From a phage, in NCBI GenBank assembly GCA_011944185.1, contig GCA_011944185.1_3921.1: DNA of 40,116 nt; one strand, written 5' to 3'. Below are positions 5,769 to 22,758 of this stretch, piece after piece. Position numbers and translations under genes: made by a program. Positions within the stretch are counted from its first letter, which is position 1. The number at the start of each line of letters is the position of its first letter. The notes beneath the pieces are model-generated. The model did no database searches. It was not told the DNA's origin and saw only the letters and a list, made by a program, of their open reading frames with translations.

Positions 5769-5834
5769 TACAGAGTTATACTTTATAAGAAGACTTATAC
5801 AGTATGTCTCTGACGTACATTGTGGTTTCTCCTT

Positions 5835-14845: not shown

Positions 14846-16198
14846 ATGTGGAATCCAATTGTTAATGTAGATATTACATTGAACACCGCAGGAACTACAA
14901 GAGAAGGTTTTGGGCTACCACTATTTTTAGCTTCAACAGATAACTTTGAAGAAAGAGTCCGTGGTTACACTTCCTTAACTGAAGTTGCTGAAGATTTCGA
15001 TGAAAACTCTGCTGCATATAAGGCTGCTAAACAACTTTGGAGTCAGACTCCTAAAGTAACTCAGCTTTATATTGGTAGACGTGCTATGCAGTACACTGTA
15101 TCAATTCCTGATGAGGTTACTGAGAGCACCGACTATTCTTTAACTGTAGCTGTGAGCGGTGGAGTTTCTCAGCCATTCCAGTACACTTCACAGTCAGAAG
15201 ATACTGCTGAGAAGGTGCTACAGCAGCTTAAAACTCAGATTGAAGCAGAGCCTTCTGTAAAAGACCTTGTTACCGTCAATGTAACTGGTGCTGGTGGTTC
15301 AGCAACAATGGTAATCACCAAAGCGGGTGACAATGACTTCGTGAAGGTTACCACTACAGCACAAACAGTGTCAATTGCAAGTACAACTGCTGACACAGCA
15401 TCGACTGCTCTGGCAGCTATTGAGGCTTATTCAACTGACTGGTATTTCATTGCAGCAGAAGATAGAACTCAACAGTTTGTCTTAGCAATGGCTTCTGAGA
15501 TTCAAGCTCGTAAGAAGATTTTCTTTACAGCTAACTCTGATGTAACAGCCCTACAAGGCACAGAATTAGCCAGTGCAAATGATGTTCCAGCACAGCTTGT
15601 TAAGAGTCAGTACACTCGTACCGTTTGCTTGTGGCATCACACAGCAGCAGAAGACTATCCAGAAATGGCATACATTGCTTATGGCGCTCCGTATGATGCA
15701 GGTTCAATTGCTTGGGGTAACGCACAGTTAACTGGCGTAGCTGCTTCTCTACAGCCATCTAATCAGAGACCTCTGACAAGTATTCAGAAGTCAGCTTTAG
15801 ATGCACGTCACTGTAACTTTATTGACCTTGATGGTGGTGTTCCAGTGGTTCGTAGAGGGATTACTTCTGGTGGGGAATGGATTGATATCATCCGTGGTGT
15901 TGACTGGTTAGAATCAGACCTGAAAACTTCTCTGAGAGACTTGCTAATTAACCAGAAGGGTGGTAAGATTACTTATGATGATACTGGTATTACCCGTATT
16001 CGTCAAGTCATTGAAACCTCTCTGCAAAGAGCAGTCAACAGAAACTTCCTGTCATCTTACACAGTTAATGTTCCTAAAGCCTCTCAAGTTGCTTTGGCAG
16101 ACAAGAAAGCTCGTATCCTGAAAGACGTTACCTTCGCAGGTATCTTAGCAGGGGCTATCTTGGATGTTGACTTGAAAGGTACAGTGGCTTACGAATAA
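14846..16198 (+). CDS. tail sheath protein (contractile tail)
   Basis: 450 aa; sheath-like N-terminus (GFGLPLFLASTDNFEE); followed by a small tube-sized ORF, chaperones and tape measure in P2/Mu order. Confidence 0.6.
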   Translation: MWNPIVNVDITLNTAGTTREGFGLPLFLASTDNFEERVRGYTSLTEVAEDFDENSAAYKAAKQLWSQTPKVTQLYIGRRAMQYTVSIPDEVTESTDYSLTVAVSGGVSQPFQYTSQSEDTAEKVLQQLKTQIEAEPSVKDLVTVNVTGAGGSATMVITKAGDNDFVKVTTTAQTVSIASTTADTASTALAAIEAYSTDWYFIAAEDRTQQFVLAMASEIQARKKIFFTANSDVTALQGTELASANDVPAQLVKSQYTRTVCLWHHTAAEDYPEMAYIAYGAPYDAGSIAWGNAQLTGVAASLQPSNQRPLTSIQKSALDARHCNFIDLDGGVPVVRRGITSGGEWIDIIRGVDWLESDLKTSLRDLLINQKGGKITYDDTGITRIRQVIETSLQRAVNRNFLSSYTVNVPKASQVALADKKARILKDVTFAGILAGAILDVDLKGTVAYE

Positions 16199-16213
16199 TA
16201 GAGGTAAATTGGA

Positions 16214-16660
16214 ATGGCTATGTATCAGCAATATTCCCCTAAAGACGTTGTGTGTAGCTGGAATGGTATTGCTATTGAAGGCTTTGCCCCAGACTCATTC
16301 TTACGTCTACAGAGAACATCACCACTTGTGACACCAGTTGTAGGTGCAGGTGGTCAAGTTGCTCTGACAAGAAATGCAGACAAGACAGGTACTATTGAGA
16401 TTGAGCTAATGCAGACTTCTCTCTCTAACCAGATGCTTTCTGCAATTCAAGCTAAACAAGACAATATGGAACTTGAAGAAGATATCTCTTCTAACTTCGT
16501 AATCTACGACCCATCAGGCTCTGTTCTGGCAACTGGTATTAATGCTTGGTTGCAGGAATTACCACAGATTGAACTTGGTCGTGACCAGAACTCTAAGACT
16601 TGGATTTTTGGTTGTGAGAAGCTAGACTACACTTCTACAATTCCAGCGTCAAGTGTTTAA
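16214..16660 (+). CDS. tail tube protein
   Basis: 148 aa; position after the sheath gene; followed by a terminator. Confidence 0.55.
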   Translation: MAMYQQYSPKDVVCSWNGIAIEGFAPDSFLRLQRTSPLVTPVVGAGGQVALTRNADKTGTIEIELMQTSLSNQMLSAIQAKQDNMELEEDISSNFVIYDPSGSVLATGINAWLQELPQIELGRDQNSKTWIFGCEKLDYTSTIPASSV

Positions 16661-16672
16661 TAAATCCTATAA

Positions 16673-16706
16673 GGGGGAGACTTTAAAAGGTCTTCCCCTT
16701 TTTTGT
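16673..16706 (+). terminator. rho-independent terminator (probable attenuator after sheath/tube)
   Basis: 9-bp stem 16673-16681/16690-16698 with an 8-nt loop, then TTTTTTGT. Confidence 0.55.
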
Positions 16707-16733
16707 TTCTTTTAAAAATATTAAGGAATCACA

Positions 16734-17132
16734 ATGAAAACAGAATCTAGAGTAATTAATGGTAAGAAAGTAAATATCGTTCTGCTTGGGGCAAGAGATG
16801 GTATTAAGATGTCTATGAAGTTGGGTAAAATTGTTGTTCCAACCTTTGCACAGATGCTGTCAAGTCTGACTGATAAAGACAAGAAAGAAGCTCCAATGGT
16901 TCCATTTAAAGAACTTGTTGAAGCTTGTTTTGACAGAATTGAAGAAATTAACCTTGAAGAAATGGCTACCTTACTATTTCAAGGGGCGACTGTTGATGAC
17001 TTCCCACTAAATATTGATACCTACTTCCAAGCAAACTACGGTGAATTTATTGATTACTTAGCATTTGCGCTGGAGGCAAACTTCGGAAGTTTTTTCGAAG
17101 CAAGCATTTTCAAAAGCCTAACTTCTCAGTAA
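16734..17132 (+). CDS. tail assembly chaperone (gpG/gpE-like)
   Basis: 132-aa ORF immediately upstream of the tape measure gene; contains slippery heptamer T_TTT_TTC at 17090-17096. Confidence 0.6.
   Translation: MKTESRVINGKKVNIVLLGARDGIKMSMKLGKIVVPTFAQMLSSLTDKDKKEAPMVPFKELVEACFDRIEEINLEEMATLLFQGATVDDFPLNIDTYFQANYGEFIDYLAFALEANFGSFFEASIFKSLTSQ
17090..17096 (+). promoter_or_regulatory. programmed -1 ribosomal frameshift slippery site (TTTTTTC)
   Basis: X_XXY_YYZ heptamer in the 0 frame of the chaperone gene, about 35 nt before its stop. Confidence 0.5.
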
Positions 17133-17134
17133 AC

Positions 17135-17373
17135 ATGGGTAACACTCTACAGACACCACTGACTGATGCTGCTGTAGAGGCAACCTATGAAGAAGCAGAC
17201 GAGATGAAATTTGTGCTTGCTATTTATGGTATGGAAGGGTGTAAAGAAACACTTGACCAACTCTTTGCTATGACATTCTCTGATTTATTATCATTGAGAC
17301 AATTTCTTGAGATTCAGAGGTCGTATAAAGAGGAAATTGCTTACAACGAACTTAGAAGAGCAGGAAAAATGTA

Positions 17374-17374
<1 letters not shown>
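17135..17374 (+). CDS. tail assembly chaperone frameshift extension (gpGT/gpE+E'-like), reached by -1 frameshift from 16734
   Basis: ORF is in the -1 frame relative to 16734..17132; the -1 frame is open from the slippery site at 17090 through 17374. Confidence 0.55.

Positions 17375-22758
<5,384 letters not shown>

Follow-up and report, generated by a model that had tools for sequence, protein, structure and literature searches.

Does the tail assembly chaperone gene of this phage give only the protein of its own reading frame, which closes at 17132, or do some ribosomes slip near its end and read on into the next open reading frame, 17135–17374, to make a second and longer protein? We addressed this question in the window, i.e. 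the whole stretch of 40,116 nucleotides of phage DNA that was analysed. Its part 16200–17700 shares 98.8% identity with Escherichia coli O157 typing phage 1 and 98.6% with wV8, and it matched 295 phage records, almost exclusively from Felix O1-like myoviruses (subfamily Ounavirinae); judged by this similarity, the source phage is a Felix O1-like Felixounavirus. Felix O1-like phages are widely used for typing of Salmonella and E. coli, in biocontrol and in therapy. The original prediction held that a programmed −1 frameshift at a heptamer T_TTT_TTC joins two tail assembly chaperone ORFs into a longer fusion product, as in lambda G/GT and P2 E/E+E′. The genes and signals that surround the locus are the following:

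14846–16198: tail sheath gene (Pfam DUF3383, PHROG 205)
16214–16660: tail tube gene (PHROG 280, Pfam KPP10_Orf10)
16671–16710, + strand: intrinsic-terminator-like hairpin and T-run (13-pair stem with 6 G-C pairs, then TTTTGTTTCT)
16723–16727, + strand: Shine-Dalgarno (SD) sequence AAGGA of the chaperone gene, 6 nt upstream of ATG 16734 (anti-SD duplex of −6.1 kcal/mol)
16734–17132, + strand: ORF1 in frame 0, tail assembly chaperone, the G-like short product of 132 aa (stop TAA 17130–17132)
17096–17374, + strand: −1 frame extension, putative T-like domain of 92 codons, from CGA 17096–17098 to the stop TAA 17372–17374
17374–19602, + strand: tape measure protein gene (Pfam TMP_3, PHROG 4036)

ORF1 was assigned to the Pfam family Phage_TAC_15 (PF21822) with 71.5 bits (E = 1.2e-19, profile positions 1–124 of 127), well over the curated gathering threshold of 22 bits, and to PHROG 1613 'tail assembly chaperone' (E = 7.9e-49). 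The −1 extension includes the ORF 17135–17374 (ORF2), which is usually annotated separately and which matched PHROG 4963 'tail assembly chaperone' (E = 2.8e-55), while the Pfam scan (E up to 0.1) placed ORF2 in no family. The pair is located between the tube gene and the tape measure gene, as required for the chaperone-frameshift type of Xu, Hendrix and Duda (2004), and these assignments together with the location bear out the identification of both ORFs as tail assembly chaperone ORFs. The tape measure protein is the presumed client of the chaperones; no solved structure related to the chaperone was found. The terminator-like hairpin sits between the tube gene and the chaperone gene, where a terminator is annotated in wV8 and Tribble, and with it the chaperone and tape measure genes would be transcribed less than those for sheath and tube. 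The SD sequence at 16723–16727 would be the sole initiation signal for the short and the long product alike. At the other end of the locus the −1 frame stop and the tape measure ATG share one base (TAATG, 17372–17376), and in nearly all related lineages this stop lies −4 to +11 nt from the tape measure start. The 240 nt before the tape measure start would be translated by frameshifted ribosomes only, and it is for this reason that we speculate that initiation at the tape measure gene may be linked in part to the rare long product.

The slip site itself and the region in which a shift would have to take place are:

17090–17096, + strand: slippery heptamer T_TTT_TTC, in the canonical X_XXY_YYZ phase of the ORF 16734–17132
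17054–17132, + strand: two-frame overlap of 79 nt with frame 0 and frame −1 both open, inside which the shift must fall

ORF1 reads positions 17088–17099 as AGT TTT TTC GAA (...G-S-F-F-E...), thus T_TTT_TTC stands in the X_XXY_YYZ phase, and direct reading of the sequence confirmed the position and the 0 frame claimed for the heptamer. ORF2 is in the −1 frame relative to ORF1 (16734 mod 3 = 0, 17135 mod 3 = 2). The last upstream stop of this frame is at 17051–17053, and the frame is open from 17054 through ATG 17135 to 17372–17374, so that the claim of an open −1 frame from the heptamer through ORF2, with a longer fusion possible, holds as well; the predicted slip product has 213 aa, 121 aa of them from frame 0 and 92 aa from frame −1. 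A +1 frameshift was ruled out, the +1 frame being closed in the window and in relatives. Within the 12,063 codons of the window's long ORFs we counted 29 in-phase XXXYYYZ heptamers (Y = A or T), and the chance expectation is about 0.06 heptamers per 26-codon overlap. Taken alone, the heptamer in the overlap is suggestive, i.e. mildly unlikely by chance and not strong evidence. The number of open −1 codons after each of the 29 heptamers is 92 here, 41 for the next and at most 26 for all others, and hence a long open −1 frame follows only the heptamer 17090–17096. The second candidate, an in-phase TTTTTTA at 5764 with the 41 open −1 codons, was rejected because the mechanical ORF 5561–5788 in which it lies is not a gene; this ORF overlies tRNA-Ser (5500–5592) and tRNA-Cys (5597–5672), and the T-run at 5764 comes after a GCCCTG...CAGGGC hairpin that is probably a terminator. 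As for the motif as such, a systematic study in E. coli ranked the H_HH.U_UU.Y class, including U_UU.U_UU.C, among the most efficient −1 motifs; U_UU.U_UU.C and U_UU.U_UU.U gave more than 0.1% shifting without a stimulator, they are under-represented in E. coli genes, and some IS elements use them (PMC4066793).

Comparison with relatives provided the decisive sequence evidence for the putative frameshift. We compared the homologous region in other Ounavirinae, i.e. Suspvirus, Mooglevirus, Kolesnikvirus (Erwinia phage phiEa21-4) and Pectobacterium phage Arno162, and in a further 49 IMG/VR loci, whose ORF1 proteins are as little as 25% identical. All 57 related loci that carry the NFxxFF motif (57/57) have NNT TTT TTY in phase. 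These loci form 14 single-linkage clusters with less than 60% protein identity between clusters, and in 14 of 14 clusters the −1 frame is open for 79–106 codons from the heptamer. Conditioned on the amino acids and on the codon usage of the locus concerned, the probability of a T-ending preceding codon together with TTT for the first Phe amounts to 0.13–0.45 per cluster, and the product of these codon-choice probabilities over the 14 clusters is 7.5e-9, a value that assumes independence of the clusters, which is reasonable given their divergence, yet an assumption. The IMG/VR loci were retrieved with patterns that were degenerate back-translations, which leaves codon choice unbiased, but one of the two patterns required the FF dipeptide. 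Since FF is conserved in the protein and was required by one pattern, the codon-level argument rests on codon choice and not on the motif alone.

The protein and nucleotide alignments converge on the same place. Of all protein motifs in the family NFxSFF is conserved best, five columns of the protein alignment show no variation at all (F98, N116, F117, F120 and F121), and the putative slip site is, in the aligned sequences, the most conserved part of the chaperone protein. Across both ORFs of seven lineages (five Ounavirinae and two metagenomic relatives) nucleotide identity is highest, at 0.93, in the 21-nt windows with centres at 17087 and 17096, where the heptamer lies. Sensitive blastn reaches the Erwinia phages only through an island of 41 nt (17079–17119, 92.7% identity) with the heptamer inside, and part of the conservation of this island is expected from coding in two frames alone. 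The −1 peptides are homologous and could be aligned across all clusters aligned (...Y....[CN]K[ED][ST]L..L..M[TS][FL]...), and because they align with ordinary protein-like conservation the −1 ORF is a real coding domain. The most distant relative, IMGVR_UViG_3300035050_000006 (1197–1810; 61% G+C), is without the NFxxFF motif and the canonical heptamer; its homologous site reads GAC CTT TTT ACC, the T5 run is kept, and the −1 frame is open with a two-frame overlap of 247 nt, so the shift in this relative may rely on the U_UUU tetramer alone.

We next consider whether the downstream ORF has a start of its own, for which a single codon comes into question:

17135–17137, + strand: ATG used as the 'ORF2' start in most GenBank records, with no SD sequence

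The rival explanation that survives best, though an improbable one, is that two separate proteins are made, ORF2 being translated from this ATG by termination-reinitiation and the heptamer being irrelevant. The ATG lies 2 nt past the TAA 17130–17132, and each of the Felixounavirus records examined (typing phage 1, radambza, BPS15S6, Pr103Blw and JLBYU28) has two separate CDSs. Moreover, when 5.8 billion proteins were searched with the fusion, every protein found had the size of ORF1 (124–136 aa), and a collection of about 15 billion proteins does not contain the exact 213-aa fusion; natural single-frame fusions were not found among the 5.8 billion proteins, which gives support neither way. Against separate translation, however, the anti-SD duplex before ATG 17135 has only −0.1 kcal/mol, compared with −4.8 to −11.8 kcal/mol for 14 neighbouring genes, and this ATG is probably no real initiation site. 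A start codon equivalent to it is absent in Erwinia phage phiEa21-4 and in several other lineages, and at least five clusters, the Erwinia phages among them, have their first −1-frame ATG, GTG or TTG more than 100 nt past the ORF1 stop and inside the conserved domain; these lineages nevertheless keep the whole −1 ORF and the conserved domain. Separate translation also leaves unexplained the invariant synonymous choice NNT TTT TTY and a −1 frame that is always open back to the heptamer. What we found for the downstream ORF is an overlap in another frame with the 3′ end of ORF1 and no initiation signals of its own, the arrangement by which chaperone frameshifts are recognised. A hairpin was observed at 17134–17189, its outer stem CAUGGGU/ACCUAUG containing AUG 17135 (104-nt fold of −24.5 kcal/mol, z = −1.76). 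In this folding model it would hide the AUG from initiating ribosomes; it was not recovered in the consensus fold across seven lineages.

Still less probable is transcriptional slippage, in which RNA polymerase would add an extra U on the T6 run, so that some mRNAs join both ORFs in frame. The site is indeed homopolymeric, with a T6 run here and T7 in four lineages. For bacterial RNA polymerase to slip efficiently, however, longer runs are needed, of about 8–9 or more, and the run here is short by comparison. Furthermore, the run is always NNT TTT TTY (14 of 14 lineages), and NNV TTT TTT was never seen. Because the polymerase is indifferent to phase and NNV TTT TTT would be equally usable, a run kept in one phase argues against polymerase slippage. 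A terminator scan flagged a hairpin and T-run at 17070–17096, which would fit an event at the polymerase, but this hairpin, with 6 pairs and G-T allowed, is weak, and chance alone predicts one match of this kind in the region. Runs of UUUUUUU are slippage-prone (PMC4066793); the SD-like element that is enriched upstream of the heptamer (see below), on the other hand, points to the ribosome. Finally, the weakest explanation traces the heptamer to a Phe-Phe motif that the protein structure requires, and sees no relation between ORF1 and the downstream ORF. It would accord with NFxSFF being so highly conserved and with a single in-phase heptamer in the 79-nt overlap (chance about 0.06), yet it is very improbable: codon choice is invariant despite synonymous alternatives (the 7.5e-9 computed above for independent clusters), and in nearly all lineages the −1 ORF, which in many of them has no start codon of its own, exactly fills the gap from ORF1 to the tape measure gene.

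With the −1 ribosomal frameshift as the preferred reading, we looked for elements that might stimulate it. A search for a downstream stimulatory structure had been suggested along with the original prediction, and neither single-sequence nor consensus folding revealed one. The 64 nt after the heptamer fold at −3.4 kcal/mol, which is weaker than shuffled sequences (z = +1.19); the consensus fold of seven lineages after the heptamer has −0.87 kcal/mol with no covariation or compensatory change; and single-sequence folds of the 64–104 nt after the heptamer in six lineages gave nothing conserved. Two hairpins were rejected as stimulators: the one at 17134–17189 starts 38 nt past the heptamer, which is too far, and the one at 17081–17100 (CUUCGGAA/UUUCGAAG) encloses the heptamer and would therefore be melted when the ribosome is on the site. 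The missing downstream structure is not evidence against the frameshift, since P2 and its relatives also lack one (PMC3091744). Upstream of the heptamer and elsewhere in the window, the elements that could bear on shifting are:

17072–17076, + strand: internal SD-like GGAGG, candidate dnaX-type stimulator, 13 nt upstream of the heptamer (anti-SD duplex of −9.3 kcal/mol)
4671–4746, 5500–5592, 3422–3497 and 182–259: phage tRNAs for the slip-site and adjacent codons, tRNA-Phe(GAA), tRNA-Ser(GCU), tRNA-Arg(ACG) and tRNA-Glu(UUC), respectively

We defined an SD-like element as GGAGG, AAGGAG or GGGAG with an anti-SD duplex of −7 kcal/mol or stronger. Such an element is present 11–13 nt upstream of the heptamer in 8 of the 14 clusters, compared with 1.4 expected from synonymous recoding with local codon usage (Poisson-binomial P of about 2e-6), and it is absent upstream of the heptamer in the remaining 6 of 14; three other lineages have AAGGAG with an 11-nt spacer. 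The slip site of E. coli dnaX is A_AAA_AAG, and there a downstream hairpin is also needed. A possible likeness to dnaX lies in the internal SD-like sequence upstream of the heptamer, here GGAGG with its 13-nt spacer, and the difference in the hairpin or pseudoknot 5–9 nt downstream, which was not found here. An internal SD sequence 8–11 nt upstream stimulates −1 shifting in dnaX (PMC6321510), and GGAGG 17072–17076 may plausibly act as a stimulator as well, although its spacing of 13 nt is at or just beyond the range of 8–11 nt. Concerning the tRNAs, 25 tRNA genes are clustered at 98–5672 of the window, and those for Phe, Ser, Arg and Glu read AGT, TTT and TTC and then GAA (frame 0) or CGA (frame −1).

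Among known systems the closest are the Citrobacter phages Moogle, Michonne, Mordin and Mijalis (Mooglevirus, Ounavirinae), in which the genes are orthologous, with about 80% nucleotide identity over 16734–17374, T_TTT_TTC at the homologous position and a homologous −1 extension. In Moogle a joined CDS is annotated, and a slip at TTTTTTC predicts exactly YP_009145710.1 (212 aa); a 212-aa fusion is likewise annotated in Michonne. Moogle differs in that the frame-0 tail past the heptamer is 1 codon longer and the in-frame ATG of the −1 ORF is placed elsewhere. The frameshift is stated in the genome papers of Moogle and Mijalis (PMC4319497, PMC5543628), thus the tail-chaperone frameshift is already known, a sister genus having it both in the annotation and in print for the orthologous gene; Felixounavirus differs from Mooglevirus in that its two ORFs are annotated separately, and in both genera the frameshift is predicted from sequence. 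In our search of the literature on Felix O1, Felixounavirus, Ounavirinae and Bas63 neither peptide nor reporter data came up, nor a western blot.

The P2 and lambda systems are more remote. Like the phage studied here, P2 has a contractile tail, and PMC3091744 describes for it a gene pair E/E+E′ between the tail tube and tape measure genes, with a −1 shift at six T residues (TTTTTTG) late in the short ORF and no downstream RNA structure; the P2 frameshift was shown experimentally (Christie et al. 2002, as cited in PMC3091744). The differences are that the P2 heptamer ends in G, whereas C or T is found here, and that the products have 91 and 142 aa in P2 versus 132 and 213 aa. Lambda (Levin, Hendrix and Casjens 1993; Xu, Hendrix and Duda 2004, 2013, 2014) shares the same logic of one start and two products, and differs in being a siphovirus and in that its short to long ratio of about 30:1 is measured. 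The lambda slippery sequence is G_GGA_AAG. From one start, a low-level −1 shift near the 3′ end yields gpG and gpGT at a fixed ratio, and these products serve as chaperones of the tape measure protein and bring in the tube protein (PMC5009743). In the Pfam scan of ORF1 and ORF2 (E up to 0.1) only Phage_TAC_15 was recovered and no homology to the lambda gpG/gpT or P2 gpE families was seen, which suggests that the resemblance to the lambda and P2 chaperones is one of mechanism and gene position only.

Taken together, the features predicted at the sequence level were found, except for a downstream structure, and they support the interpretation as a lambda G/GT- or P2 E/E+E′-type event: we estimate the probability of a programmed −1 ribosomal frameshift at 17090–17096 that produces a 213-aa fusion at roughly 0.85. 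Ribosomes would start at ATG 16734, and most would stop at TAA 17130–17132 to give the 132-aa chaperone. A minority would slip back by 1 nt with UUU in the P site and UUC in the A site of U_UUU_UUC, both tRNA-Phe re-pairing with UUU and UUU, and decoding would resume at CGA 17096 in the −1 frame and continue to the stop at 17372–17374. The long product of 213 aa would thus consist of the chaperone body and a C-terminal domain of 92 aa, and the slip rate would set the ratio of short to long product. If the parallel with lambda gpG/gpGT and P2 E/E+E′ holds, the tape measure protein (17374–19602) would be coated by the N-terminal part common to both products, and the 92-aa extension would recruit the tail tube protein.

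The arrangement is the expected textbook organisation of a tailed phage; mildly new are the strict T_TTT_TTY across a very diverged family, the enriched upstream SD-like element and the lack of a downstream structure. For the whole Phage_TAC_15 family, i.e. the Ounavirinae and many uncultured relatives, we tentatively propose, as a joint statement that may well fail in one of its parts, that T_TTT_TTY is fixed, that the only stimulator is a dnaX-like SD sequence 11–13 nt upstream with no downstream structure, that presence or absence of this SD sequence tunes the short to long ratio, and that phage tRNA-Phe, -Ser, -Arg and -Glu could influence the slip rate. In the phage collection, most of the about 300 records of Felixounavirus and related phages either list the 'tail assembly chaperone' as two separate genes or leave out the second ORF altogether. 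We observed that no gene is called over the −1 ORF in Erwinia phage phiEa21-4 (locus 1569–1806) or phage Tribble (locus 1199–1441), and that in Erwinia phage Harbringer (locus 997–1202) the region is split into two short ORFs. The consequence for annotation is that the second ORF would be given as the C-terminal extension of a 213-aa frameshift product. For the engineering of these phages, correct gene models matter, since tail assembly would probably be lost if recoding or codon optimisation disrupted TTTTTTC.
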